Shown here: one piece after another, positions 1 through 10,461 of the stretch
How the letters are laid out: each line of letters begins with the position of its first letter
Numbering within the stretch: position 1 is the first letter of the stretch
Assembly: GCF_004365815.1 (NCBI RefSeq)
Contig: NZ_SODD01000058.1
Span: 1 to 10,461 of the forward strand
Direction: 5' to 3'
Origin: Breznakia blatticola
Lineage (GTDB): Bacteria > Bacillota_I > Bacilli_A > Erysipelotrichales > Erysipelotrichaceae
DNA: 10,461 bases
The notes under the pieces: generated by a model
What the model was told of the DNA's origin: nothing
The model's database searches: none
The model's input: only the letters and a program-made list of their open reading frames with translations
Made by a program: the position numbers and the translations under genes

Positions 1-161
1 TATGGTAACGATTCTTAATATTATTTTTACAATTTCTATTATGAATCTAAATCCACGTTTAGACAACTTAGGGGGTCACTTCATATTATCTTAATTGTAG
101 TGTAATCTAACCATTGAAAAAAGGCAAATAAAAAAACCCGCAGAAAATTATCGAAAAGTAC

Positions 162-190
162 TTGAAATGCAATATGATATTTGGTATTAT
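162..190 (+). promoter_or_regulatory. Candidate sigma-A-type promoter of the tRNA operon
   Basis: TTGAAA at 162-167, 17-nt spacer, TGg extended element at 182-184, TATTAT at 185-190. It sits about 34 nt upstream of the first tRNA. Read by eye, no experimental TSS. Confidence 0.55.
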
Positions 191-223
191 TAGTAAGCAT
201 TGCGAAAGCAAGCGATAAAAAAT

Positions 224-300
<77 letters not shown>

Positions 301-308
301 TTCGATAT

Positions 309-385
309 CGGGAAGTAGCACAGCTTGGTAGTGCACCTGGTTTGGGACCAGGGGGTCGCAGGTTCGAATCCTGTCTTCCCGACCA
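309..385 (+). tRNA. tRNA-Pro (anticodon TGG)
   Basis: Acceptor CGGGAAG/CTTCCCG, anticodon stem CCTGG/CCAGG with loop TTTGGGA (TGG), T-arm GCAGG-TTCGAAT-CCTGT, encoded CCA at 383-385. Confidence 0.93.
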
Positions 386-393
386 TTATAAAT

Positions 394-470
394 GGCTGGG
401 TAGCTTAGTTGGCTAGAGCATCCGGTTCATACCCGGAAGGTCGTGAGTTCGAGTCTCACTTCAGCCACCA
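394..470 (+). tRNA. tRNA-Met, elongator type (anticodon CAT)
   Basis: Acceptor GGCTGGG/TTCAGCC (two G-U pairs), G1-C72 paired. Anticodon arm TCCGG-TTCATAC-CCGGA (CAT) resembles Bacillus-type elongator Met. T-arm GTGAG-TTCGAGT-CTCAC, encoded CCA. Confidence 0.8.
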
Positions 471-493
471 TTTATTATTTGTAGTTATATGCT

Positions 494-570
494 GGACCCT
501 TAGCTCAGTTGGTTAGAGCATCCGGCTCATAACCGGTGGGTCACAGGTTCGAGTCCTGTAGGGTCCACCA
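494..570 (+). tRNA. tRNA with CAT anticodon, probably tRNA-Ile2 (lysidine-modified); alternatively a second elongator Met
   Basis: Acceptor GGACCCT/AGGGTCC, anticodon loop CTCATAA (CAT), T-arm ACAGG-TTCGAGT-CCTGT, encoded CCA. The acceptor stem and D-arm closely resemble my recollection of Bacillus subtilis tRNA-Ile2(CAU) (GGACCTTTAGCTCAGTTGGTTAGAGC...). Ile versus Met identity cannot be proven from sequence alone. Confidence 0.6.
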
Positions 571-592
571 ATATATAAAACTTAAGACATCT

Positions 593-683
593 GGAGGAAT
601 ACCCAAGTGGCTGAAGGGTCCGGTCTTGAAAACCGGTAGGTCGGGAAACTGGCGCCTGGGTTCGAATCCCAGTTCCTCCGCCA
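593..683 (+). tRNA. tRNA-Ser (anticodon TGA), class II with long variable arm
   Basis: Acceptor GGAGGAA/TTCCTCC, anticodon arm CCGGT-CTTGAAA-ACCGG (TGA), variable-arm hairpin GTCGG-GAAA-CTGGC, T-arm CTGGG-TTCGAAT-CCCAG, encoded CCA. 91 nt long. Confidence 0.92.
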
Positions 684-717
684 TTATTATTTAAGTTTTA
701 TGATTTATTTTATTCAT

Positions 718-794
<77 letters not shown>

Positions 795-797
795 AAT

Positions 798-873
798 GGT
801 CCCGTAGCTCAGTCGGTAGAGCAAAGGACTGAAAATCCTTGTGTCGTTGGTTCGATTCCGACCGGGACCACCA
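798..873 (+). tRNA. tRNA-Phe (anticodon GAA)
   Basis: Acceptor GGTCCCG/CGGGACC, anticodon arm AAGGA-CTGAAAA-TCCTT (GAA), T-arm GTTGG-TTCGATT-CCGAC, encoded CCA. Only 3 nt after the fMet tRNA. Confidence 0.93.
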
Positions 874-884
874 TTTGGAAAGAA

Positions 885-921
885 AGTGTCTAATCAATAT
901 TGATTAGACACTATTTTTTTA
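885..921 (+). terminator. Rho-independent terminator of the tRNA operon
   Basis: Perfect 12-bp stem AGTGTCTAATCA / TGATTAGACACT with ATAT loop, followed by A-TTTTTTT (913-920). It starts 12 nt after tRNA-Phe. Confidence 0.85.
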
Positions 922-1023
922 TTCTTCAATAATCACTCGTTTTGTCATGTTTTATCAAGTTTAATCAGGTAAATGGTGTCAAAATTACTTTGGATCAAAG
1001 CAATGTCTAATCTTATTACATGC

Positions 1024-1062
1024 AAACAGCCCATGAACGCATTATCGCTCACGGGCTGTTTT
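1024..1062. terminator. Long imperfect hairpin in the convergent intergenic region, possibly a bidirectional or back-up terminator
   Basis: Outer stem AAACAGCCC (1024-1032) / GGGCTGTTT (1053-1061). Inner partly paired TGAACG/CGCTCA with loop CATTAT. Flanked by TTTT on the plus strand and TTT on the minus strand, so both U-tracts are weak. Confidence 0.35.
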
Positions 1063-1111
1063 ACATTAATCTTGTCATTTTACGCTGTATTATGTAAATA
1101 CATTATGACAC

Positions 1112-1144
1112 CACCAAAAGGCGCGAGTATTTTCACGCCTTTTT
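1112..1144 (-). terminator. Probable intrinsic terminator of the adhesin gene
   Basis: Minus-strand reading just after the TAG stop: AAAAAGGCGTG-AAAATACT-CGCGCCTTTT-GGTGG. That is a 6-bp GC-rich stem (one G-U pair) extended by A-U pairs, an 8-nt loop and a U-tract. On the plus strand the same hairpin carries a C/A mismatch and is followed by TTTTT. Confidence 0.55.
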
Positions 1145-1154
1145 CAGTGTTTTT

Positions 1155-4100
1155 CTATTTTCTCTTTTTTGCTCTTGCAAATTTAAATGATGTTCCAGAA
1201 ATTACTACACCACTTAGTAATAACATAAATAGATAATATGGTGTATTGTTTGGATCACCTGTGTTTGGTGAAGTACTCGGACGGAATACTACTGGTTTAT
1301 CAGGTGTCTTTTTATTCTCAAACATTAAGGATACTGCAGTTGTTTGATTCGCTTTGATTTCAAAGTTTATCTTTTCCTTATTTAATTGGTATCCTTTAGG
1401 AGCTTTCGTTTCTTGGAAATAATAGTTTCCTTCATCTAAATTAGCTGCCGAGATAACTCCGTTTGCATCACTCACAAGTTTTTCAGTTACAAGCGTTCCA
1501 TCTGCTTTGTATAAACTGAATTCAGCTCCTTCTAAAGCATTCTTAGAAGCAGAGTCGATTTTATGTAAGACAACATCACCTTTCGTGATAATTGCTTTGT
1601 ATGCGTTAACGAAGCTAACTGATGGTGCATGTGTTAAATCTGTTCCAGTTTTTCTTTGAACAGCTAATGTTCCATCACCGTTATCAACAATTTCGTAAGT
1701 AGCAGTGTATGTAGTTGTATCGTATGTAATTCCATCAATACTTCCTGCTTTCTCAACGATCTTGTATGTGTACGTTTTACCTTTATCTGCAAGTGTGTAA
1801 TTCATTGTTTTAAATGTGAATGTTTCACTTGATCCATTTGTTGGGTTGATAGTTTGTGTATCCACTAAAGTTTCTACACTACCTTCAACTTTGTATAGAT
1901 CAAATGAGAATACATCTGTTGCAGTAAAGTTTCTTCCTGTTAATGTTTTTGTTCCCGCAAAGGAAACACTTCCATTAGCAGCATATGTGTTTGTAAATGT
2001 CACATCACTAGCTGATGTTAAATCTGTTCCAGATTTTCTAGTTAAACGCAGTGTTCCATCACCATTGTCAGTGACTTCATATGTCGCTGTATACTCTGTT
2101 GTATCGTATGTAATTCCGGAAATATTTTCTACTTTTTCCTTTATCTTATACGTACGTAATTGATCTTTATCAGCAAGTGTGTAATTCAACGTTTTAAATG
2201 TGAACGTTTCATTTGATCCACTTGTTGGTGTAATTGTTTTCGTATCAATTAATACATCCAATCCTCCAACTTTTGCATACAATTCAAATGTGAATGTATC
2301 TCCTGCTTTAAAGTCTCTTCCAGATAATGCTTTTGTTCCGCTGAATGCAATTGAAGCATTTGCTGCATATGTATTTTCAAATGCTACATCTGTTGATGAA
2401 GTTAAATCCGTTCCAGATTTTCTAGTAGCTACTACTGTACCATCTCCTCCATCTTCAATTTCATAACTTGCTGTATATGTAGTTGTATCATATGTAATTC
2501 CAGCAATACTTTCTGCTTTCTCAACAATTTTGTATGTGTATGTTTTACCCTTATCTGCTAAAGAGTAACTCAATGCATTAAACGTAAATGCTTCATTCGA
2601 ACCACTTGTAGGATTGATCACTTTTGTTTCCAATAATGTATCACCTGAACCATCAACTTTGTATAGTTCAAATGTGAACGTATCACCAGCAGTGAAGTTT
2701 CTTCCTGTTAGTGTTTTTGATCCCGCAAATGTAATGCTTCCAACTGCTGCATACGTGTTTTCAAACTCGACAGCTGCTGCAGATGTTAAATCTGTTCCTG
2801 ATGCTTTCGTAACACTTAATGTACCATCACCATTATCTGCAACTGTGTAATTTGCAGTGTATTCTGTTGTATCATATGTGATTCCTGCAATACTTCCTGC
2901 TTTTTCAACAATCTTATACGTATATGTTTGTCCTTTGTCAGCCAATGTGTAGTTTAACGTTTTGAATGTGAACGTTTTACTTGATCCACTTGTTGGAGTA
3001 ATTGTTTGTGTATCAATTAATTGATCTCCTGAACCATCGACTTTATATAGTTCAAATGTGAATGAATCACTAGCAGCAAAGTTTCTTCCTGTCAGTGTTT
3101 TCGTCCCTGCAAAGGCAATACTTCCAGTTGCTGCATACGTATTTGTGAATGTCACATCACTTGCTGAAGTTAGATCAGTTCCAGATTTTTTCGTTGCGCT
3201 TAATGTACCATTTCCATTATCCGTAATGTCATATGTTGCTGTGTATACTGTTGTATCATATGTTACTCCAGCTAACGTCTCCGCTTTCTCAACAATCTTA
3301 TATGTATATGTTTTCCCTTTATCTTCTAACGCATAATTTAACGTCTTGAATGTAAATGCTTCACTTGATCCACTTGTTGGGTTGATTGTTTTTGTATCGA
3401 GTAATTGATCTCCTGAACCATCAACTTTGTATAGTTCAAATGTAAATGAATCGCCAGATGCGAAGTTTCTTCCTGTTAGTGTTTTTGTTCCGGCAAACTT
3501 AATGTTACCAGCTGCACCATATGTGTTTTCAAATTCTACTGCCGCTGCAGATGTTAAATCTGTACCTGATGCTTTTGTAACACTTAATGTACCATCTCCA
3601 TTATCTGCAATCGTATAGTCTGCTGTATACACTGTTGTATCATATGTTACTCCAGCCACAGTTCCTGCTTTTTCAACAATCTTATATGTATATGTTTGCC
3701 CTTTGTCAACTAATGTGTAGTCTAACGTTTTAAATGTGAACGTTTCACTTGTTCCACTCGTTGGGTTGATTGTTTGTGTATCAATTATTTGATCTCCTGA
3801 ACCAGTAACTTTATATAACTCAAATGAGAACGTATCACTAGCTGCAAAGTTTCTACCTGTTAGTGTTTTTGTTCCTGCAAAGGCAATACTTCCAGTTGCT
3901 GCATACGTATTTGTGAATGTTACATCACTAGCTGATGATAAATCTGTTCCTGATGCTTTCGTAACACTCAATGTACCATTACCGTTATCGGTGATTGTAT
4001 AGTTTGCTGTGTACACTGTTGTATCGTACGTCACTCCAGCCACACTTCCGCTTGTTTCAACAATCTTATATGTATACGTTTGCCCTTTATCAGCTAATGT

Positions 4101-7100
4101 ATAGTCTAATGTTTTGAACGTGAACGTTTCACTTGTCCCACTTGTTGGGTTGATTGTTTGTGTATCAAGTAATTGATCTCCTGAACCAGTAACTTTATAT
4201 AACTCAAATGAGAACGTATCACCTGATTGATAGTTTCTACCTGTTAGTGTTTTTGTTCCACCAAAGGCAATGCTTCCAGTTGCTGCATATGTATTTGTAA
4301 ATGTTACAGCCGTTGAAGAAGTTAAATCAGTTCCTGATGTTTTTGTAACACTTAGCGTACCATCACCATTATCTGTAATTGTGTAGTTTGCAGTGTACTC
4401 TGTTGTATCATATGTTACTCCAGATATGTTTCCGATTGTTTCTTTAATCTTGTATGTATATGTGTTCCCTTTATCTGCAAGAGTGTAATTCAATGTCTTG
4501 AATGTAAATGTTTCACTTGAACCTGTTGTAGGTGTAATTGTTTGTGTGTCTAATGGTGTTTCAAATCCACCAACAACACCAATTAATTCAAAACTATATG
4601 TATCTCCTGCTTTAAAGTCTCTTCCCGTTAATGTTTTAGATCCCGCAAATGTAATATTTCCACTTGCTGCATACGTATTTGTGAATGTTACGTCACTTGC
4701 AGATGTTAAATCGGTTCCTGATTTTTTCGTTGCACTTAATGTACCATTTCCATTGTCAGTAATGTCATATGTTGCTGTGTACTCTGTTGTATCATATGTT
4801 ACTCCAGATATGTTTCCGATTGTTTCTTTAATCTTGTATGTATATGTGTTCCCTTTATCTGCTAACGCGTAATTTATCGTCTTGAATGTGAATGCTTCGC
4901 TTGATCCACTTGTAGGAGTAATTGTTTTTGTGTCGATTAATTGAGCTCCCGAACCATCAACTCTGTATAGTTCAAATGTGAATGTATCACCAGATGCGAA
5001 GTTTCTTCCTGTTAGCGTTTTTGTTCCGGCAAACTTAATATTACCAACAGCACCATATGTGTTTTCAAATTCAACTGCTGTTGCAGATGTTAAATCTGTT
5101 CCTGATGCTTTCGTAACACTTAATGTACCATTACCGTTATCTGTAATCGTGTATGATGCAGTATATTCGGTTGTATCGTATGTTACTCCTGCCACAGTTC
5201 CTGGTTTCTCGATAATTTTATATGTATATGTTTGCCCTTTGTCAGCTAACGTGTAATTTAGCGTTTTAAATGTGAACGTTTCGCTTGTTCCACTTGTTGG
5301 AGTAATAGTTTTTGTATCAATTATTTGATCTCCTGAACCAGTAACTTCATATAGTTCAAATGTAAATGAGTCGCCAGATGCAAAATCTCTACCTGTTAGT
5401 GTTTTTGTTCCGGCAAAGGCAATGCTTCCAGTTGCTGCATACGTGTTTGTAAATGTTACATCACTTGCAGACGTTAAATCTGTACCCGAAGCTTTTGTAA
5501 CACTTAGTGTACCATCACCATTATCCGTAATTGTATAGTCTGCTGTATACACTGTTGTATCGTAAGTTACTCCAGCTATACTTCCGCCTGTTTCAACAAT
5601 TTTATAAGTATACGTTTGTCCTTTGTCAGCTAATGTGTAGTTTAACGTTTTAAATGTAAACGTTTCACTTGATCCACTTGTTGGGTTGATAGTTTGTGTA
5701 TCAACTATTTGGTCTCCTGAACCTGTAACTTTGTATAGTTCAAATGTGAATGTATCACCAGATGCAAAGTTTCTACCTGTTAGTGTTTTTGTTCCACCAA
5801 AGGCAATACTACCAGTTGCAGCATACGTATTTGTGAATGCTACATCAGCTGCAGTAGTTAAATCCGTTCCTGAAGTTTTCGTAACACTCAACGTACCATC
5901 ACCATTGTCAGTAATTTCGTAACTTGCTGTATATTCATTTGTTGCATATGTTACACCTGAAATGCTTCCAACTTCTTCTTTAATCTTATATGTATACGTT
6001 TTTCCAGCATCTTCTAGTGTATAGTTTAGCTTTTTAAATGTAAATGTTTCACTTGACCCACTTGTCGGAGTAATTGTTTTTGTGTCTAATGGTGTTTCAA
6101 ATCCACCAACAACACCATATAATTTAAAGCTATATGTATCTCCTGCTTTAAAGTTTCTTCCTGTCAATGTCTTTGTTCCTGCAAATGTAATATCACCAGT
6201 TGCAGTATAAAGTTTATTCTCAATATCTCCAATATCTACAGTAGTTACTCCATTAGAATAGTTCTCATCTAATGTGAATGTATATTTCTCATTAGAAACT
6301 GCATACGTACTAGGAGCTACAATCTCTTTGAAATAGTAGTTTCCTGCATCTAAACGAGAAATACGTAATTTCCCTTTATCTGCTCCAGAACTAATAACTT
6401 CTAATGCATCTGTTCCTGTACTGTCGTGGAAATACCAATCTTCACCTGCAATTTGTGTTTTTGTAAATCCAGTAACTTTTGTTGCATTGTTGATATCTGA
6501 GTCATACTTATACAATTCAAACACAGCACCTGCTAATGCATCTTTTGTTTTTTCATCAACTTTCTTTAATTCCACAGATCGAGGAACGTTATTCAATAAC
6601 TTGTATGTAATGGCTGTACTTGATATTTTAAACTCAATTGACTGATTCTGCGTTTGATAGAATCCATCTGGTGATGCAACTTCCACCAATACGTAATCAC
6701 CTTCAGCTAGTTTCGTAATAATGAATCGACCACTACCATCTGGACTTGAAATTTCTGTATCCGTTGCACCAGCATTATATTCATATTTTCCATCTGCATA
6801 TTTAAATGTTAATGGTGTAGTTAAATCCGTCTTTCTATAAATTTTAAATTTCGCATTTCCTAAACCACCATGAATCGCAGAATCATCATCTTTTGACGTA
6901 CTGTTTCCATATAATGAATCGGCTTTGTAAATAACCACGTCACCGTTTACTGGTTTAGCAGTAATAGTTCCACCCCAACTGTTTAAGGCTTCTGCATTTT
7001 TACTGTTTTCTGTCCATCCACCACTTACTCTGTATCCGTTGCTTACTTTATCAATTGCTCCAGTTTCAGCTTGCGTTACTTTTACACGAGTGGTAACTGT

Positions 7101-8924
7101 CGCCTTAAAGTTAAGCGCAGGACGATCTACTTTATAGTATTCAAGAGCCTCATCACAGGCTTTAACTAATTGTTTCCATTCCTTTAATGTAAACTTAATT
7201 TTTGCCGATGTTTTATCTTGAATCAGTGTATCATCTGTTGCAGTTGAATTTTCGTCAATCAATAATTGTGCATCTGCTTTAATAGTCAAAATTTGCGTTT
7301 TTAAATCCGCTAAAGTTGTAAAATCACTTACTTTCAAATATGAGTTATCGCCTTTTCCTGGAGAACCAAAATTCACAATCATGCGCTCTCTTTGGTGACC
7401 ATACCCATCAGGTTCTGTAACTACCGTCCAGGATTTATTAGTAGCGCGTACTGTTGCCTCAACTGCTTGCATATCTGCATCTGTATCACCAGCTGGGGCA
7501 ATGTACTGCATTCCTCCTTTTTGACTATCTGTTCCACCTATCAAAACGTTATAATTCATACTAAACGCTTCGAATGTTCTATTCGAATCACTATCACGTA
7601 AATAAATCGGAGCTGCTATACGAACAGAAACACCATTATCTCTCCATTTATCCTCGGGGAAAGCATTGAATGTTTGGTGAAAATCTACATATTCTTCAAA
7701 AATCAATGGTTCATAATCATATGGTGTATTGATATCAAATTGGTGAGACGCATAATCACTTATTACTACGTTCCATTGGATAGTTTTTGTACTATCTTGA
7801 TAGTTAGTAAACACTTTCGATGAAGGTCTTGGACCATCTTGAATTACCCCAGGATTTGTACTATCAGGCCTATCAATCCAGTCAATCTCCGCAAATGTTT
7901 CTCCATTGCGATCAATAACAACTTTATCTCCCTTTTTACCACCACTAAATCTAGCATCACCTTTCATATTACCTTGCATATCGGTCAATGTAGGTAAGTC
8001 AACATCTGGTTCTGGATCAAATGTGATTACATAAAACAAAGTATATGTACCATCGCTGTTTTTTACTTTTTCTACAGTTCCAACAGCAAGTTTTCTATTT
8101 AGATTTGGATCAATTAAATCTTTCTCTCCAAAATCCAAACTATTTACTAACGCTTCTGACGCACTCAATGTCAATAACTCAAATTTAATGTAATCCCCAG
8201 CTTCATAACCTTTAGCATTAGAGTCTTTTATACCCCAATCCATTTGATAGTAAATCGCAGGATTACCAAAAGTCGCCCATTCAAGTTTACTAGATCCTGT
8301 TTTACTTCCGTTAACCTCATGATACACTTCATGTTTTACTGCACCATCATACGTAGCCATTTCTAAAATTAATTCCTTAATTATAAAATCGTTTGTTACA
8401 TCTGTTCCAGGTGAATTATTAAAATATGGTGTAATTGCTTGTTGTAAAGCCAATGTCTTCGTGTATGTTGTATCGTTGTGGTCTTTAAACACTAAGTTTG
8501 CATCTTTATCCGTATTTACTTTTGCATTTACACGCAAATTTCCCTTAAGTACTGCATTTTCATCTACTGCACTTTGCTTAATGTTAAATACAATCTTTTG
8601 ATTTGTTACATCCACAACTGCAGTTCCCACTTCAACTCCATTTGTGTTTGTTAGTGCTGCTTGCAGCGCATCAACAAGTTGTAACTCCTCTGGAAAGTAT
8701 AGTCTCTTTTCTGACAATGTATCTTCATCATTTGTCAGATCCCATGAGAGGTCCACACCTACCATTTCATCTTTTTTAAACAGCTCAGATTCATCATCAT
8801 GTGTAATGTTGATTTGAGAAATCCATTCTGTTTCTTTAGCTAATACATTTGCATACTCACTCCCTGTGAAGTATGTAGCAATGAGTAACGTAAAAGCTAA
8901 ACATAATTTTGAAAGTTTCTTCAT
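1155..8924 (-). CDS. Giant (2589 aa) sortase-anchored fibrillar surface adhesin: signal peptide, Cna/MSCRAMM-like N-terminal region, CnaB/SpaA-type domains, 12 tandem Spy0128/FctA-type isopeptide domains, SPNTG sorting signal
   Basis: Uninterrupted 7770-nt ORF. AAGGAG Shine-Dalgarno 6 nt upstream of the ATG. N-terminal MKKLSKLCLAFTLLIATYF signal sequence. C-terminal SPNTG plus hydrophobic stretch plus KKRK. Domain motifs are itemised in the sub-features below. Confidence 0.95.
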   Translation of the reverse strand: MKKLSKLCLAFTLLIATYFTGSEYANVLAKETEWISQINITHDDESELFKKDEMVGVDLSWDLTNDEDTLSEKRLYFPEELQLVDALQAALTNTNGVEVGTAVVDVTNQKIVFNIKQSAVDENAVLKGNLRVNAKVNTDKDANLVFKDHNDTTYTKTLALQQAITPYFNNSPGTDVTNDFIIKELILEMATYDGAVKHEVYHEVNGSKTGSSKLEWATFGNPAIYYQMDWGIKDSNAKGYEAGDYIKFELLTLSASEALVNSLDFGEKDLIDPNLNRKLAVGTVEKVKNSDGTYTLFYVITFDPEPDVDLPTLTDMQGNMKGDARFSGGKKGDKVVIDRNGETFAEIDWIDRPDSTNPGVIQDGPRPSSKVFTNYQDSTKTIQWNVVISDYASHQFDINTPYDYEPLIFEEYVDFHQTFNAFPEDKWRDNGVSVRIAAPIYLRDSDSNRTFEAFSMNYNVLIGGTDSQKGGMQYIAPAGDTDADMQAVEATVRATNKSWTVVTEPDGYGHQRERMIVNFGSPGKGDNSYLKVSDFTTLADLKTQILTIKADAQLLIDENSTATDDTLIQDKTSAKIKFTLKEWKQLVKACDEALEYYKVDRPALNFKATVTTRVKVTQAETGAIDKVSNGYRVSGGWTENSKNAEALNSWGGTITAKPVNGDVVIYKADSLYGNSTSKDDDSAIHGGLGNAKFKIYRKTDLTTPLTFKYADGKYEYNAGATDTEISSPDGSGRFIITKLAEGDYVLVEVASPDGFYQTQNQSIEFKISSTAITYKLLNNVPRSVELKKVDEKTKDALAGAVFELYKYDSDINNATKVTGFTKTQIAGEDWYFHDSTGTDALEVISSGADKGKLRISRLDAGNYYFKEIVAPSTYAVSNEKYTFTLDENYSNGVTTVDIGDIENKLYTATGDITFAGTKTLTGRNFKAGDTYSFKLYGVVGGFETPLDTKTITPTSGSSETFTFKKLNYTLEDAGKTYTYKIKEEVGSISGVTYATNEYTASYEITDNGDGTLSVTKTSGTDLTTAADVAFTNTYAATGSIAFGGTKTLTGRNFASGDTFTFELYKVTGSGDQIVDTQTINPTSGSSETFTFKTLNYTLADKGQTYTYKIVETGGSIAGVTYDTTVYTADYTITDNGDGTLSVTKASGTDLTSASDVTFTNTYAATGSIAFAGTKTLTGRDFASGDSFTFELYEVTGSGDQIIDTKTITPTSGTSETFTFKTLNYTLADKGQTYTYKIIEKPGTVAGVTYDTTEYTASYTITDNGNGTLSVTKASGTDLTSATAVEFENTYGAVGNIKFAGTKTLTGRNFASGDTFTFELYRVDGSGAQLIDTKTITPTSGSSEAFTFKTINYALADKGNTYTYKIKETIGNISGVTYDTTEYTATYDITDNGNGTLSATKKSGTDLTSASDVTFTNTYAASGNITFAGSKTLTGRDFKAGDTYSFELIGVVGGFETPLDTQTITPTTGSSETFTFKTLNYTLADKGNTYTYKIKETIGNISGVTYDTTEYTANYTITDNGDGTLSVTKTSGTDLTSSTAVTFTNTYAATGSIAFGGTKTLTGRNYQSGDTFSFELYKVTGSGDQLLDTQTINPTSGTSETFTFKTLDYTLADKGQTYTYKIVETSGSVAGVTYDTTVYTANYTITDNGNGTLSVTKASGTDLSSASDVTFTNTYAATGSIAFAGTKTLTGRNFAASDTFSFELYKVTGSGDQIIDTQTINPTSGTSETFTFKTLDYTLVDKGQTYTYKIVEKAGTVAGVTYDTTVYTADYTIADNGDGTLSVTKASGTDLTSAAAVEFENTYGAAGNIKFAGTKTLTGRNFASGDSFTFELYKVDGSGDQLLDTKTINPTSGSSEAFTFKTLNYALEDKGKTYTYKIVEKAETLAGVTYDTTVYTATYDITDNGNGTLSATKKSGTDLTSASDVTFTNTYAATGSIAFAGTKTLTGRNFAASDSFTFELYKVDGSGDQLIDTQTITPTSGSSKTFTFKTLNYTLADKGQTYTYKIVEKAGSIAGITYDTTEYTANYTVADNGDGTLSVTKASGTDLTSAAAVEFENTYAAVGSITFAGSKTLTGRNFTAGDTFTFELYKVDGSGDTLLETKVINPTSGSNEAFTFNALSYSLADKGKTYTYKIVEKAESIAGITYDTTTYTASYEIEDGGDGTVVATRKSGTDLTSSTDVAFENTYAANASIAFSGTKALSGRDFKAGDTFTFELYAKVGGLDVLIDTKTITPTSGSNETFTFKTLNYTLADKDQLRTYKIKEKVENISGITYDTTEYTATYEVTDNGDGTLRLTRKSGTDLTSASDVTFTNTYAANGSVSFAGTKTLTGRNFTATDVFSFDLYKVEGSVETLVDTQTINPTNGSSETFTFKTMNYTLADKGKTYTYKIVEKAGSIDGITYDTTTYTATYEIVDNGDGTLAVQRKTGTDLTHAPSVSFVNAYKAIITKGDVVLHKIDSASKNALEGAEFSLYKADGTLVTEKLVSDANGVISAANLDEGNYYFQETKAPKGYQLNKEKINFEIKANQTTAVSLMFENKKTPDKPVVFRPSTSPNTGDPNNTPYYLFMLLLSGVVISGTSFKFARAKKRK
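1158..1271 (-). other. C-terminal cell-wall sorting signal with non-canonical SPNTG motif
   Basis: 1257-1271 reverse-complements to TCA CCA AAC ACA GGT = S-P-N-T-G. This is followed by DPNNTPYYLFMLLLSGVVISGTSFKF (hydrophobic) and ARAKKRK (positive tail), the tripartite LPXTG-type organisation. Confidence 0.8.
1308..1580 (-). other. C-terminal CnaB/SpaA-type (prealbumin-like fold) stalk domain, aa about 2449-2539
   Basis: GDVVLHKIDSASKNALEGAEFSLYKADGTLV...VISAANLDEGNYYFQETKAPKGYQL matches the familiar pattern K.D....L.GA.F.L......G......L..G.Y...E..AP.GY of CnaB/SpaA domains. Confidence 0.7.
1593..6200 (-). repeat. 12 head-to-tail in-frame 384-bp (128-aa) tandem repeats, each a Spy0128/FctA-type pilin isopeptide-linkage domain
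   Basis: Exact 384-bp period with no indels. Units in gene order: R1 5817-6200, R2 5433-5816, R3 5049-5432, R4 4665-5048, R5 4281-4664, R6 3897-4280, R7 3513-3896, R8 3129-3512, R9 2745-3128, R10 2361-2744, R11 1977-2360, R12 1593-1976. Consensus F.G.K.L.GR.F..GD.F.F.L...........T....G...F....Y.....TY.Y.I.E.....G..YD...Y........G.G.L...........F.N.Y fits the pilin isopeptide linkage domain family as I recall it (TIGR03786 / Pfam FctA). Confidence 0.93.
6210..6944 (-). other. Two consecutive CnaB/SpaA-type stalk domains (aa about 661-778 and 784-905)
   Basis: GNAKFKIYRKTD...GRFIITKLAEGDYVLVEVASPDGFY and LAGAVFELYKYD...GKLRISRLDAGNYYFKEIVAPSTYAV. Both show the GA.F.L...G......L..G.Y...E..AP..Y signature. 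Confidence 0.7.
6945..8837 (-). other. N-terminal putative ligand-binding (A-like) region, aa about 30-660, Cna/MSCRAMM-like Ig folds with a helical insert
   Basis: Patterns typical of MSCRAMM/Cna A-region subdomains: W..(gap)..AGDYIKFELL...DLIDPNLNRKLAVGTVEKV...TYTLFYVITF, then KTIQWNVVIS, then a closing SNGYRVSGGW...ALNSWGGTITA segment before the first CnaB domain. Family assignment rests on remembered motifs only and ligand specificity is unknown. Confidence 0.4.
8838..8924 (-). other. Sec-type signal peptide (aa 1 to about 29)
   Basis: Positively charged n-region MKKLSK, hydrophobic core LCLAFTLLIATYF, possible cleavage after ANVLA. The cleavage site is not computed. Confidence 0.75.
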
Positions 8925-8930
8925 AGTTAT

Positions 8931-8936
8931 CTCCTT
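8931..8936 (-). promoter_or_regulatory. Shine-Dalgarno site of the adhesin gene
   Basis: Plus-strand CTCCTT equals AAGGAG on the minus strand, 6 nt before the ATG at 8924. Confidence 0.85.
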
Positions 8937-8951
8937 AACTTCTATCCTTTA

Positions 8952-10250
8952 CTATCCAATTTCTATTTCTAATCTATTTCCGGCATAATCGTAAACATAA
9001 AACAAATCATGTACATCCAGTGGGCTGTAGATTTGTATAATGTTTGCTTCTATATCGTATGTGTAGTCATTAGACAATACTCCATTTCGATATAGTTCAA
9101 TTGTTGCGTAATTGATTTGTGATGCGTTATCACCTAAATATAATGTGTATAAAAACTCTTCATTTGTATGGTATCCTGTAGGACTTTCTACATCGATATT
9201 TGAAACCGTAATTTCAAATGCATCGATAACCTTTCCATCTTTTTCCAATTGAATGGTATATGTACCATTTTGAGCAACCTGTGTAGTTTGCACACCGTCA
9301 ATAAGTAGTCGATCATAATTTGTATTACTTGTATCAACTTCTATTTCTACTACTTGATTGGTCCATTCTTGATTAAAATGAACACCAGTTATTTTTGACA
9401 TTTCTGCAATAGCTGGTTGCTGAATCATTGGCAAAGCAAGAACTCCTCCACCAACTGGCTCACTTGGTCGTGAATGAATATATGCAGCACCTGTAAAGCA
9501 AACCGCTGCTGCAGTAGCAACTGCAACTTTTGTTTTAAATGCCATACCAAATAGCGTTCCTCCACCAAGGATTTTTTGTAGAATATCAGAATTCACACTA
9601 GCTCCTTCTGAACACAGTTCACTCAATAATCGATATGCTTGCTCCAACACACCTGGCGAAAGCAACAATACACTGTAACTTTTTGGTGATATCCCCTGTT
9701 TTTGCAAATCAACTCGTAATGTTTTTTTAATTTTGTTCAATCTTGAACTTACAGTGCCTCTAGGAATATTTAAGATTTTTGAAATTTCCTCTAACGGAAG
9801 TTCTTCATAATATCGTAAAATTCCGACACTCTTTAGTGGTATACTCATCGAGTTTAGTGAATCCATGATGGCATTCATCACTTGCTTGTTTTCAATAATC
9901 GTTGAAATATCATCTTGTTTTACATCCTCGAAATTATCCACTGCGTATCCATCCTCTAACGTAGTATATTTTTTCTCCTTCCGTGCATAGTTTAAGCACT
10001 CATTGTAAACGATTCGTTGAATCCAAGCGTGAAAGTACTTGGGATCGTTTAAATTTCTCAACTTCTTGTACACTTTGATAAAAACCTCTTGTAAGACATC
10101 ACTAGCCACCTGCTCATCTCTAAAGAAATGTGTTGCGATAAAATATACCTTATTGTAGTATGCTCTATAAATTTCGGAGAATGCATCCGTATCTCCTGAG
10201 ACTGCTTTTTCTATGATGTCAATTGACACTAAGTTATAAACTTCCTCCAC
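8952..10250 (-). CDS. ECF-type (group 4) sigma-70 family factor fused in one polypeptide to a linker, a single transmembrane helix and a roughly 175-aa extracytoplasmic Ig-like domain (432 aa)
   Basis: Open frame with GTG start preceded by AAGGGGG. The next in-frame Met is aa 125, so GTG is the only sensible start. Region 2 and region 4 motifs, the TM segment and the C-terminal domain are itemised below. Stop TAG at 8952-8954. Confidence 0.88.
   Translation of the reverse strand: MEEVYNLVSIDIIEKAVSGDTDAFSEIYRAYYNKVYFIATHFFRDEQVASDVLQEVFIKVYKKLRNLNDPKYFHAWIQRIVYNECLNYARKEKKYTTLEDGYAVDNFEDVKQDDISTIIENKQVMNAIMDSLNSMSIPLKSVGILRYYEELPLEEISKILNIPRGTVSSRLNKIKKTLRVDLQKQGISPKSYSVLLLSPGVLEQAYRLLSELCSEGASVNSDILQKILGGGTLFGMAFKTKVAVATAAAVCFTGAAYIHSRPSEPVGGGVLALPMIQQPAIAEMSKITGVHFNQEWTNQVVEIEVDTSNTNYDRLLIDGVQTTQVAQNGTYTIQLEKDGKVIDAFEITVSNIDVESPTGYHTNEEFLYTLYLGDNASQINYATIELYRNGVLSNDYTYDIEANIIQIYSPLDVHDLFYVYDYAGNRLEIEIG
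8955..9476 (-). other. Extracytoplasmic C-terminal beta-rich region, probably two Ig-like/beta-sandwich modules (aa about 259-432)
   Basis: Alternating beta-strand patterns: VVEIEVD, YTIQLEKDGKVIDAFEITVSNIDVESP, LYTLYLGD, ATIELYRNG, IIQIYSP. The terminal YDYAGNRLEIEI resembles the D.AGN motif that closes many bacterial Ig-like (Big) domains, and NID..(S)P resembles the boundary between such domains. Confidence 0.45.
9477..9527 (-). other. Predicted single transmembrane helix (aa about 242-258)
   Basis: Uncharged stretch VAVATAAAVCFTGAAYI, preceded by FKTK (positive-inside) and followed by HSRPSEP. It is Ala-rich and about 17-20 residues long. Assessed by eye only. Confidence 0.6.
9711..10193 (-). 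other. Sigma core-binding and DNA-binding portion: region 2 (aa about 20-90) and region 4 HTH (aa about 125-180), no region 3
   Basis: Region 2: DAFSEIYRAYYNKVYFIATHFFRDEQVASDVLQEVFIKVYKKL...FHAWIQRIVYNECLNYARK. Region 4.2: LPLKSVGILRYYEELPLEEISKILNIPRGTVSSRLNKIKKTLR. A short 35-aa linker separates them, which is the ECF hallmark. Confidence 0.85.
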
Positions 10251-10255
10251 TATAT

Positions 10256-10262
10256 CCCCCTT
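10256..10262 (-). promoter_or_regulatory. Shine-Dalgarno site of the sigma gene
   Basis: Minus strand reads GAAAGGGGGATATA-GTG. The G-rich SD lies 5 nt before the GTG at 10250, and an in-frame TGA lies 4 codons upstream of the start. Confidence 0.7.
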
Positions 10263-10312
10263 TCAGAAACATGTAGTTTTATCACACAAAATTACGCTTT
10301 ATTTATAACGGG

Positions 10313-10384
10313 ATTAAGTTAACCCAAACATAAGACATGTAAAAAACAAAAAAGTCTCACTTTATTTTAATGTCATTAAGTTAA
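10313..10384. repeat. Two copies of a 10-bp direct repeat ATTAAGTTAA (10313-10322 and 10375-10384) in the sigma upstream region
   Basis: Exact 10-mer seen twice, 62 bp apart. On the minus strand it reads TTAACTTAAT. Chance recurrence cannot be excluded in AT-rich DNA. Confidence 0.35.
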
Positions 10385-10395
10385 GAATCCATTAA

Positions 10396-10440
10396 CCAAG
10401 CAAAATTCATCGATGAAGTGAATTTTGCTTGGTTTTTTTG
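10396..10440 (+). terminator. Plus-strand-oriented intrinsic terminator-like hairpin with no annotated plus-strand gene upstream
   Basis: 14-bp perfect stem CCAAGCAAAATTCA (10396-10409) / TGAATTTTGCTTGG (10419-10432), 9-nt loop, then TTTTTTT (10433-10439). On the minus strand the hairpin is followed only by TTAATGG, so it is directional. Confidence 0.6.
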
Positions 10441-10461
10441 TTGTCTTCTAAAAGTTGTGTT

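Follow-up and report, generated by a model that had tools for sequence, protein, structure and literature searches.

A family of predicted membrane-tethered ECF sigma factors encoded with surface proteins in Breznakia and related Erysipelotrichales

Results

A sigma factor gene with a membrane-spanning extension precedes a giant adhesin gene

We analyzed a 10,461-nt stretch of the Breznakia blatticola genome (contig NZ_SODD01000058.1, positions 1 to 10,461; hereafter, the window), which contains two long open reading frames (ORFs), both on the minus strand. One (8952..10250) encodes a 432-aa protein in which an extracytoplasmic function (ECF) sigma factor is joined in a single chain to a predicted transmembrane (TM) helix and two immunoglobulin (Ig)-like domains, and the other (1155..8924) encodes a 2589-aa adhesin. 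The sigma-fusion gene starts with GTG at 10250 and ends with TAG (8952-8954); its ribosome-binding site (RBS), GAAAGGGGGA (10255..10264, minus strand), was read from the sequence, and its end is 5 nt from the start codon. On the same strand, the adhesin gene begins with ATG at 8924, 27 nt past the sigma-fusion stop. A preliminary description of this DNA, drawn from the sequence alone, had reported that this gap (8925..8951, minus strand) leaves room for an AAGGAG RBS and lacks a terminator. Both our reading of the sequence and a terminator scan confirm this: the RBS lies at 8931-8936, and the junction contains neither a terminator-like site nor a sigma-70-like promoter. Source annotations name this family merely "sigma-70 family RNA polymerase sigma factor." From N to C terminus, the chain comprises ECF sigma regions 2 and 4, a linker, a hydrophobic helix, a variable spacer, and two tandem Ig-like domains.

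Sigma region 2 occupies aa 27-94 (9969..10172, minus strand; Pfam PF04542 Sigma70_r2, E 2.5e-14), and region 4 occupies aa 127-179 (9714..9872, minus strand; PF08281 Sigma70_r4_2 at aa 127-178, and PF04545); Sigma70_ECF (PF07638) additionally matches aa 11-182. Pfam detected no other sigma region (no 1.1 or 3) and nothing in aa 186-432. The protein passes the NCBIfam model TIGR02937 (sigma70-ECF) with 98.8 bits against a cutoff of 42.9, and no NCBIfam equivalog model attains its own cutoff on it. Foldseek matched region 2 to sigmaE region 2 structures and the sigma core as a whole to AlgU, SigW, SigE, and SigH. These results establish the protein as an ECF (group 4) sigma-70 factor with regions 2 and 4 only, in line with the complete ECF sigma proposed earlier. 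Within the family described below, the region 4 recognition helix is almost invariant (T166, V167, S169, and R170, of which T166 and R170 are invariant). Position 168 is Ser in the clade of the window protein and Asn in most B. pachnodae paralogs, which sets two sigma subfamilies apart.

The sigma core is followed by a cytosolic juxtamembrane linker (aa 186-236; 9543..9695, minus strand) with a conserved motif, GISPKNY...(S/T)P..I..AY..L, in which G186, I187, P199, Y206, and L209 are near-invariant in the family alignment. AlphaFold2, run with that alignment, models helices at aa 189-192, 199-214, and 221-228. The linker matches no Pfam family at E up to 10 and no PDB sequence, including those of solved anti-sigma factors; FecR and all other anti-sigma Pfam families are likewise without a match in the whole protein at E up to 0.1 and in the linker at E up to 10. 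By eye, aa 186-236 contain one Cys and no His, and hence no HxxxCxxC zinc motif, and Pfam reports no zf-HC2 match. The earlier claim that the linker lacks an anti-sigma or zinc-binding motif thus withstood these searches, with a length of about 50 aa.

A single TM helix is predicted at aa 238-259 (9474..9539, minus strand). It coincides with the hydropathy maximum of the protein, is Ala/Gly-rich, and has K237 and K239 at its cytosolic side. The only hydrophobic segment of the protein spans aa 238-260 (Kyte-Doolittle 19-mer maximum 1.47). AlphaFold2 models the helix at low confidence, as is usual for an isolated TM segment. A hydrophobic 19-mer block (Kyte-Doolittle 1.4-2.95, at approximately aa 208-270) is also present in all 74 sigma-bearing representatives of the family, and together with the hydropathy and the modeled helix this bears out the prediction of one TM helix. 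The segment retains Gly positions across family alignments (consensus K...G........GG).

Beyond the helix lies a variable, predicted extracytoplasmic spacer (aa 260-283; 9402..9473, minus strand), modeled as disordered with a predicted local distance difference test score (pLDDT) below 50, and then two tandem Ig-like beta-sandwich domains (aa 284-432; 8955..9401, minus strand) that end in an invariant DYAGN motif. In the full-length AlphaFold2 model, aa 285-432 are all-beta with pLDDT above 90, and the ectodomain modeled alone reaches a pLDDT of 96.9. The C-terminal domain of the preliminary description, predicted to be extracytoplasmic, is upheld, and the AlphaFold2 model and Foldseek matches give it a fold.

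The fusion defines a family in Erysipelotrichales

A 99%-identical protein is annotated in an unclassified Breznakia. Beyond it, we found 22 further full-length homologues of 426-444 aa, with 37-58% identity and end-to-end alignment, in Breznakia pachnodae, Breznakia sp. PF5-3, Coprobacillaceae metagenome-assembled genomes (MAGs), and other assemblies. To reach more distant members, a profile of the C-terminal 150 aa alone was searched against 1.84 billion representatives and returned 510 matches. Among the best 150 of these, we checked the layout of the 80 that are shorter than 520 aa. The sigma-TM-Ig layout is present in 74 of these 80 small representatives; as representatives are clustered at 50% identity and come from independent assemblies, it occurs in at least 74 clusters. 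The remaining six (103-226 aa) are without a sigma domain and were read as truncated gene calls; of the four whose sequences we inspected, one, P0043, visibly begins within the linker. Three sequences that comprise TM and Ig parts without a sigma domain (P0043, P0049, and P0051) were considered as split anti-sigma genes, and we rejected this, given that only about 20-35 residues precede the TM segment and that P0043 begins inside the linker. All named family members are from Breznakia, Thomasclavelia, or Coprobacillaceae (Coprobacillaceae/Erysipelotrichales), and B. pachnodae encodes at least seven paralogs.

Conservation differs sharply along the chain. Mean pairwise identity is 54% in sigma region 2, 53% in region 4, 45% in the first Ig-like domain (Ig-A), and 42% in the second (Ig-B); it falls to 32% in the cytosolic linker, 25% in the TM helix, and 17%, the lowest value in the protein, in the outer spacer.

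More distant ECF cores (P0024-P0034, 548-741 aa) are likewise fused to TM segments, with LRR_5 (BspA-type) or Big_2 ectodomains. Their fusion runs through a conserved element after region 4 (KLY/KLH...PF...W) and an Ala/Gly/Thr-rich tract. These sequences suggest a wider Firmicute class in which a membrane sigma factor and an adhesin-like ectodomain form one chain.

Sigma-fusion genes form compact cassettes with unrelated surface-protein genes

In the window, the sigma fusion is paired with an adhesin (1155..8924, minus strand) that comprises a signal peptide, an N-terminal region of unknown fold, three SpaA prealbumin-like domains, and 12 FctA/Spy0128 isopeptide domains. Pfam finds FctA (PF12892) in 12 stretches (E 4.9e-211) and SpaA in three, and the NCBIfam model TIGR03786 also matches 12 stretches; by these domains, the adhesin belongs with proteins built of Spy0128/FctA pilin domains. 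Its translation begins MKKLSKLCLAFTLLIATYF... and ends ...SPNTGDPNNTPYYLFMLLLSGVVISGTSFKFARAKKRK. The C-terminal sorting signal (1158..1271, minus strand) consists, in translation, of SPNTGD, a hydrophobic stretch, and a tail of KKRK. With its signal peptide, motif, hydrophobic segment, and basic tail, the protein has the hallmarks of sortase-anchored (LPXTG-type) proteins, the motif being an SPNTG variant.

The preliminary description called for a survey of related genomes for conserved synteny of sigma-TM-Ig and adhesin genes, and the outcome was positive: a surface-protein gene follows the sigma fusion by 14-39 nt in 11 of the 13 cassettes examined. In a sister strain (locus L001), which is 95.5% identical to the window over 83..10382, the same 2589-aa adhesin follows after 27 nt. 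Elsewhere the cargo changes entirely. The next gene encodes at least 937 aa at L003, where it extends beyond the contig (gap 29 nt); 1810 aa at L005 (28 nt); 1019 aa with Flg_new at L006 (14 nt); 1130 aa with Big_8 at L007 (25 nt); 501 aa with Lectin_L/MucBP/SHIRT at L090 (39 nt); 704 aa at L091 (35 nt); and 717 aa with Lectin_L/MucBP at L092 (27 nt). L008 holds two whole sigma-cargo cassettes in tandem (6744-9737 and 10001-12515), 263 nt apart, in which the next genes encode 549 aa with Flg_new (gap 18 nt) and 396 aa (gap 16 nt). Each of these tandem cassettes has its own TGAAC-N17-CTACAAA motif and GTGTCTATAAGGGTG element, and the pair suggests cassette duplication. The gaps hold only an RBS, even though the cargo domains (FctA/SpaA, Flg_new, Big_8, and Lectin_L/MucBP/SHIRT) are unrelated, and the flanking genes differ at every cassette locus. 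No separate anti-sigma gene is called beside the sigma fusion in any locus fetched.

Three loci are arranged differently. At L089, the next gene encodes PadR at 239 nt, with no adhesin downstream, and the contig ends 233 nt upstream. At L094 (Thomasclavelia), an anchored surface protein is encoded upstream, behind a hairpin, and a PNPOx gene lies downstream. In L093, a distant member, a 110-nt gap is followed by genes of 335, 1009, and 291 aa, and the 291-aa protein bears an anchor signal.

A signal peptide is present in all complete cargo proteins; at their C terminus, a [VP]xTGD-like motif (the G sometimes replaced) leads into a hydrophobic segment, and a basic tail closes the chain. Forms of the sorting signal include SPNTGD, VNTMD, VNSGD, VKTGDD, VVTGDK, and PNTGDT (the window, L005-L008, and L090-L094), and this non-canonical signal often has NPS(T/K) in front of it and xxNT behind it, ahead of the TM segment and basic tail.

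ECF-type promoter motifs precede sigma-fusion genes

Approximately 80-110 nt upstream of the sigma-fusion GTG lies a candidate ECF-type autoregulatory promoter (10330..10360, minus strand), consisting of a -35 element, (G)TGAGAC, at 10354-10360, a 17-nt T-rich spacer, and a -10 element, TGTCTTAT, at 10330-10337. The core pattern TGAGAC-N17-GTC occurs once in the window (10334-10359, minus strand), against 0.04 occurrences expected by chance, and its extended form reads AAAGTGAGAC, T-rich spacer, TGTCTTATG. The same TGAGAC element precedes the sigma gene in the sister strain, and at L003, the next closest family member (58% identity), AAAGTGAGAC...CCGTCATATG lies upstream of the sigma gene. The sister strain additionally carries a second copy of the motif, AAAATGAGACTTTTTTAGTTTCTGCTTGTCTTAAT, on the opposite strand (ATGAGAC-N17-TGTCTTAAT at 9543-9568 of L001, minus strand). 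This copy lies 67 nt upstream of a divergent 1028-aa gene (6415-9501, minus strand) for a protein with a signal peptide and an anchor of APNTAD, TM segment, and RRK. The sigma's regulon in that strain therefore probably includes, as judged from the motif, a second surface protein, whose gene is outside the window.

Cassettes of the B. pachnodae type show a related pattern, TGAAC-N16-18-NNAC[TA]AA, with 10 matches in 183 kb of family loci. Eight of these 10 are directly upstream of sigma-fusion genes, seven within 260 nt and the eighth at 314 nt. The background was set by 80 unrelated ECF sigma loci from many phyla, most of about 20 kb each, picked from a genome scan with a generic region 2 peptide pattern; it yielded nine matches. 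A looser pattern covering the window type, TGA-N1-2-C-N16-18-GTC, proved too unspecific (29 matches, five upstream) and was dropped, so that the exact TGAGAC form alone counts as evidence. By eye, a GTGTC(T/C)-type element is also present in most TGAAC-type loci. In two cases both promoter types, with GTC-type and xxACTAA-type -10 elements, stand before one sigma gene (L003 9858-9883 and 9940-9968; L092 5836-5864 and 5907-5933), which hints at hierarchical control or at cross-regulation between the two sigma subfamilies. The geometry of the motifs appears ECF-like (AAC/GAC at -35, GTC/xAC at -10, 17 nt) and would fit autoregulation.

The preliminary description had regarded sigma fusion and adhesin as a dedicated sense-and-express module. 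The synteny part of that proposal holds. Its exclusivity stands only in part, given that paralogous cassettes share the promoter motif and that, in the sister strain, the motif also precedes the gene for a second surface protein.

The ectodomain belongs to an Ig-repeat family found in giant proteins

Foldseek matches to the ectodomain are generic two-module Ig/FN3-like sandwiches at E of about 1e-3 and include Sidekick Ig1-4, the Fn3-like modules of CbhA, SraP, and the Ca-binding BIg domains of SiiE; the last gives the best TM-score match (TMq 0.55). Invariant residues are mostly at Asp/Asn/Gly positions (T307, N309, N328, G329, D343, D353, D374, D421, and A423-G424-N425), and the Asp/Asn/Gly positions look structural or Ca-binding. 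The two Ig halves are not detectable duplicates of each other (hhalign probability 0.4%).

The profile search also found the Ig-like unit of the sigma fusion in giant proteins of 0.8-4.5 kaa (up to 4494 aa), such as P0038, P0040, P0042, P0047, and P0062, where 5-30 copies stand in tandem. In a crude test for signal peptides, 54 of 64 of these giants score positive, and the three that we examined have only weak Pfam matches, to BiPBP_C, Big_3_2, or DUF7743. From its sequence, the unit looks like an uncurated Ig-repeat family. Because most of the giant proteins have a signal-peptide-like N terminus, the homology argues that the C terminus of the sigma fusion lies outside the cell. We also considered self-recognition, in which the ectodomain would be homologous to a domain of its cognate cargo, and rejected it: hmmsearch with whole, A-half, and B-half ectodomain profiles against seven cargo proteins gave a best E of 0.017, with domain scores near 0.

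Other features of the window

The FctA array is encoded by a 384-nt tandem repeat (1632..6083, minus strand; 11.6 copies, 76% matches, Tandem Repeats Finder), and repeats of this kind are liable to copy-number change and assembly collapse. About 240 nt past the adhesin stop, at 885-912, is a perfect palindrome with a 12-bp stem (AGTGTCTAATCAATATTGATTAGACACT), which scores on both strands and is the sole terminator-like element after the operon. A 101-aa ORF at 81-386 (minus strand) has no Pfam or NCBIfam match, and its region is conserved in L001 without a gene call; it is probably non-coding. At the other end, a strong hairpin with a 17-bp stem (10394-10434, plus strand) followed by TTTTTGTTGT lies just upstream of the sigma promoter, with no plus-strand gene before it. 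Similarity to L001 stops at about 10382, some 12 nt before this hairpin, and the neighboring DNA therefore differs between the strains at the edge of the promoter-sigma-adhesin block.

Discussion

Relation to known systems

ECF sigma signaling normally needs two proteins. To our knowledge, single-chain membrane-spanning ECFs are confined to a few proteobacterial and actinobacterial groups, and a mechanism is established for IutY alone.

In IutY of Pseudomonas putida (ECF243), a hybrid of sigma and anti-sigma factor, Prc and RseP carry out the activation (PMC8999054). Like the protein described here, IutY joins in one chain an ECF sigma at the N terminus, a TM segment, and a C-terminal part that is extracytoplasmic, and it has no separate anti-sigma factor. 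It undergoes regulated intramembrane proteolysis (RIP), and its truncated sigma part is constitutively active (PMC8999054). IutY differs in its FecR-type anti-sigma region and in its role in Gram-negative cell-surface signaling with a TonB-dependent receptor for siderophore uptake; the present fusion has no FecR or other anti-sigma domain, a Firmicute host, an Ig-like ectodomain, and an adjacent adhesin as apparent target.

Membrane-spanning ECF fusions also make up the actinobacterial groups ECF48, ECF52, and ECF53, exemplified by SCO4117 of Streptomyces coelicolor (PMC5826349, PMC8999054, PMC7826278), which together with IutY is a precedent for proteolytic activation of sigma/anti-sigma fusions (PMC8999054). 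Like our family, they extend the ECF core at its C terminus with TM helices (one or two) and, beyond a spacer of low complexity, an extracytoplasmic domain, and proteolytic activation has been proposed for them. What sets them apart is a zinc-finger (ZAS-like) motif and an ectodomain of carbohydrate-binding or glycosyl-hydrolase type. The family here has the predicted TM helix and extracytoplasmic domain of that type without the zinc finger; it has two Ig-like domains instead, belongs to Erysipelotrichales, and has expanded as two-gene cassettes with sortase-type cargo. A soluble extension of the ECF41/ECF42 type does not apply, as Pfam finds no SnoaL or TPR match and a TM helix is predicted.

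Among two-protein systems, SigW/RsiW and SigV/RsiV of Bacillus subtilis and SigE/RseA of E. coli likewise combine an extracytoplasmic sensor, one TM segment, cytosolic control of sigma, and an autoregulated operon. In structure, the sigma core described here comes closest to AlgU, SigW, and SigE. In the two-protein systems, the sensor is a separate single-pass anti-sigma factor that is cleaved by RIP, whereas here sensor and sigma are one chain, and the approximately 50-aa linker is unlike their anti-sigma domains. SigI/RsgI systems of Clostridia and Bacilli occur as multiple paralogs per genome and are activated by RIP (PMC10556640, PMC10575876). They, too, couple extracellular sensing modules to genes for surface-displayed or secreted proteins; SigI, however, lies outside the ECF group and is a different protein from RsgI, which has an autoproteolytic SEAL domain, whereas the sigma fusion has no SEAL domain and a 24-aa spacer alone between TM helix and Ig domains. 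ToxR, TcpP, and CadC resemble the fusion in linking a DNA-directed transcription function to an extracytoplasmic domain through one TM helix, but they are winged-helix activators that act while membrane-bound, and the protein here is a sigma subunit. The main text of ECF classification 2.0 (Casas-Pastor et al. 2021) lists no Firmicute group with a single-TM extension and an Ig ectodomain, and our literature search found no published description of the sigma-TM-Ig family or its adhesin cassettes; looking for membrane-bound sigma factors in general likewise brought up nothing relevant. Membrane-spanning sigma fusions are already known from IutY and ECF48/52/53, and the Firmicute family with Ig ectodomain and adhesin cassettes is a new form of that design.

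A model for tethering and release

On balance, we favor a model in which the protein is a one-component membrane-tethered ECF sigma factor that autoregulates the sigma-adhesin operon and is probably activated by proteolytic release, and we hold this to be somewhat likelier to be right than wrong. The sigma2-sigma4 core and the conserved linker would lie in the cytosol, connected by one TM helix and a flexible spacer to a rigid Ig-like pair outside. Three points suggest this N-in/C-out topology: sigma has to be in the cytosol, basic residues flank the helix on its N-terminal side, and the ectodomain shares homology with repeats found in secreted proteins. The sigma gene and the giant adhesin gene would be co-transcribed from the TGAGAC-N17-TGTCTTAT promoter, so that active sigma would amplify its own synthesis along with that of the adhesin. 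At rest, the tether, possibly with a linker helix packed on the sigma domains, would hold sigma from RNA polymerase and promoter. Events outside the membrane, acting on the spacer or the Ig pair, may then bring about site-1 cleavage, after which a RasP/RseP-type protease would cut the Gly/Ala-rich helix within the membrane and yield soluble sigma. This two-step scheme is modeled, by analogy, on IutY (PMC8999054) and on RsiW, RsiV, and RseA.

The conserved Gly positions of the TM segment would fit a site-2-protease substrate, an argument that builds on what is known of RseP and RasP substrates. As for the signal, we take seriously the possibility that it comes from the envelope or from surface assembly and is not a ligand specific to the cargo, because the ectodomain is conserved while the cargoes differ and its invariant Asp/Asn/Gly residues look structural or Ca-binding.

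Several observations weigh against this model or parts of it. No anti-sigma domain is detectable, and with about 50 aa the linker falls short of the class I anti-sigma domain, in which a bundle of helices some 90 aa long binds sigma2 and sigma4; inhibition by the tether is therefore something we infer. The hydrophobicity of the TM segment in the window member is modest (1.47). That paralogs have promoter motifs in common speaks against insulated, one-to-one modules; since the region 4 recognition helix is also almost invariant, the cassettes probably form a cross-talking regulon instead of fully insulated pairs. Two contexts, L089 and L094, have no downstream adhesin. Finally, the ectodomain (42-45% identity) is nearly as conserved as the sigma core (53-54%) while the cargoes are wholly different, so that it does not have the appearance of a cargo-specific or ligand-diversified sensor.

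This last point bears on another reading, in which the ectodomain does not sense the environment but keeps watch over the cell's envelope or the assembly of its surface proteins; it might respond to wall integrity, to sortase or secretion load, or to contact with the homologous Ig repeats of the giant proteins. The cassette would then be a feedback or checkpoint circuit for surface display and not a module that answers an external cue. This reading is consistent with an ectodomain that is conserved across paralogs and genera, with the unusual C-terminal anchor signal common to all cargoes, with invariant Asp/Asn/Gly residues of the sort that, in the Ig repeats of adhesins, typically serve structure or bind Ca (SiiE BIg being the best TM-score match), and with the existence of giant secreted proteins built of the same Ig unit. 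Yet no ectodomain-cargo homology was detected by hmmsearch in the seven cargo proteins, and conservation of the ectodomain could equally reflect a single shared external ligand. We regard this reading as unlikely, albeit worth serious consideration.

The sharing of promoters invites a different thought, namely that sigma is never released and acts while tethered, as ToxR, CadC, and TcpP do, recruiting RNA polymerase to DNA held at the membrane with a preference for its own locus. As both cassette products are membrane or secreted proteins, coupled transcription, translation, and insertion would hold the locus near its own sigma, and such action in cis would explain why every cassette has its own sigma despite the shared promoter motifs. 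At least seven paralogs in one genome, each directly upstream of a different cargo gene, with near-identical promoter motifs and almost invariant recognition helices, agree with this idea, as does a linker without a detectable anti-sigma domain. We know of no membrane-active sigma factor, however; sigma must travel with core RNA polymerase through open-complex formation, for which a 50-aa tether is sterically demanding; and shared promoters are equally compatible with a deliberately cross-activating regulon. Tethered action therefore strikes us as distinctly improbable. Its most specific version, in which unreleased sigma fires mainly in cis, co-translational insertion holds the cassette DNA at the membrane, and proximity, not promoter sequence, insulates the at least seven paralogs, seems a shade less probable again; if true, a cis-acting membrane-bound sigma would be the first of its kind.

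We give little credence to the view that the adjacency is purely positional. In that view, sigma would control other genes, the adhesin would have its own transcription or owe it to passive read-through, and the two would not form a functional module. L089 and L094, where PadR (at 239 nt) or PNPOx, not a surface protein, is encoded downstream and the surface protein of L094 is encoded upstream behind its hairpin, speak for it, and an internal promoter within the 3' end of the sigma gene is possible. The 14-39-nt arrangement is nevertheless kept in 11 of 13 cassettes despite full turnover of cargo and flanking genes, the junction is without a terminator or sigma-70-like promoter, and the promoter motif also precedes another surface-protein gene in L001.

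Lastly, that the long ORF is an assembly or frameshift artefact joining an ordinary sigma gene to an anti-sigma gene, a caveat raised in the preliminary description, has a negligible chance of being true and is excluded: the layout is uninterrupted in 23 full-length homologues and in 74 of 80 small representatives from independent assemblies (at least 74 clusters), and the 95.5%-identical sister strain has it in the same reading frame.

Implications

Our analysis places the single-chain design in Firmicutes, without a recognizable anti-sigma domain and with an adhesin-type Ig ectodomain. The family is large and comprises sigma and surface-protein cassettes in insect- and gut-associated Erysipelotrichales. 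Its unit is a compact promoter-sigma-cargo cassette that has been repeatedly duplicated, with unrelated surface proteins swapped behind a conserved regulator. It offers a tractable system for asking how a tether alone could silence a sigma factor, and a possible source of small, self-contained sensor-to-transcription parts for synthetic biology. For the bacteria themselves, these cassettes suggest how gut and insect-gut Erysipelotrichales may switch their repertoire of surface adhesins.

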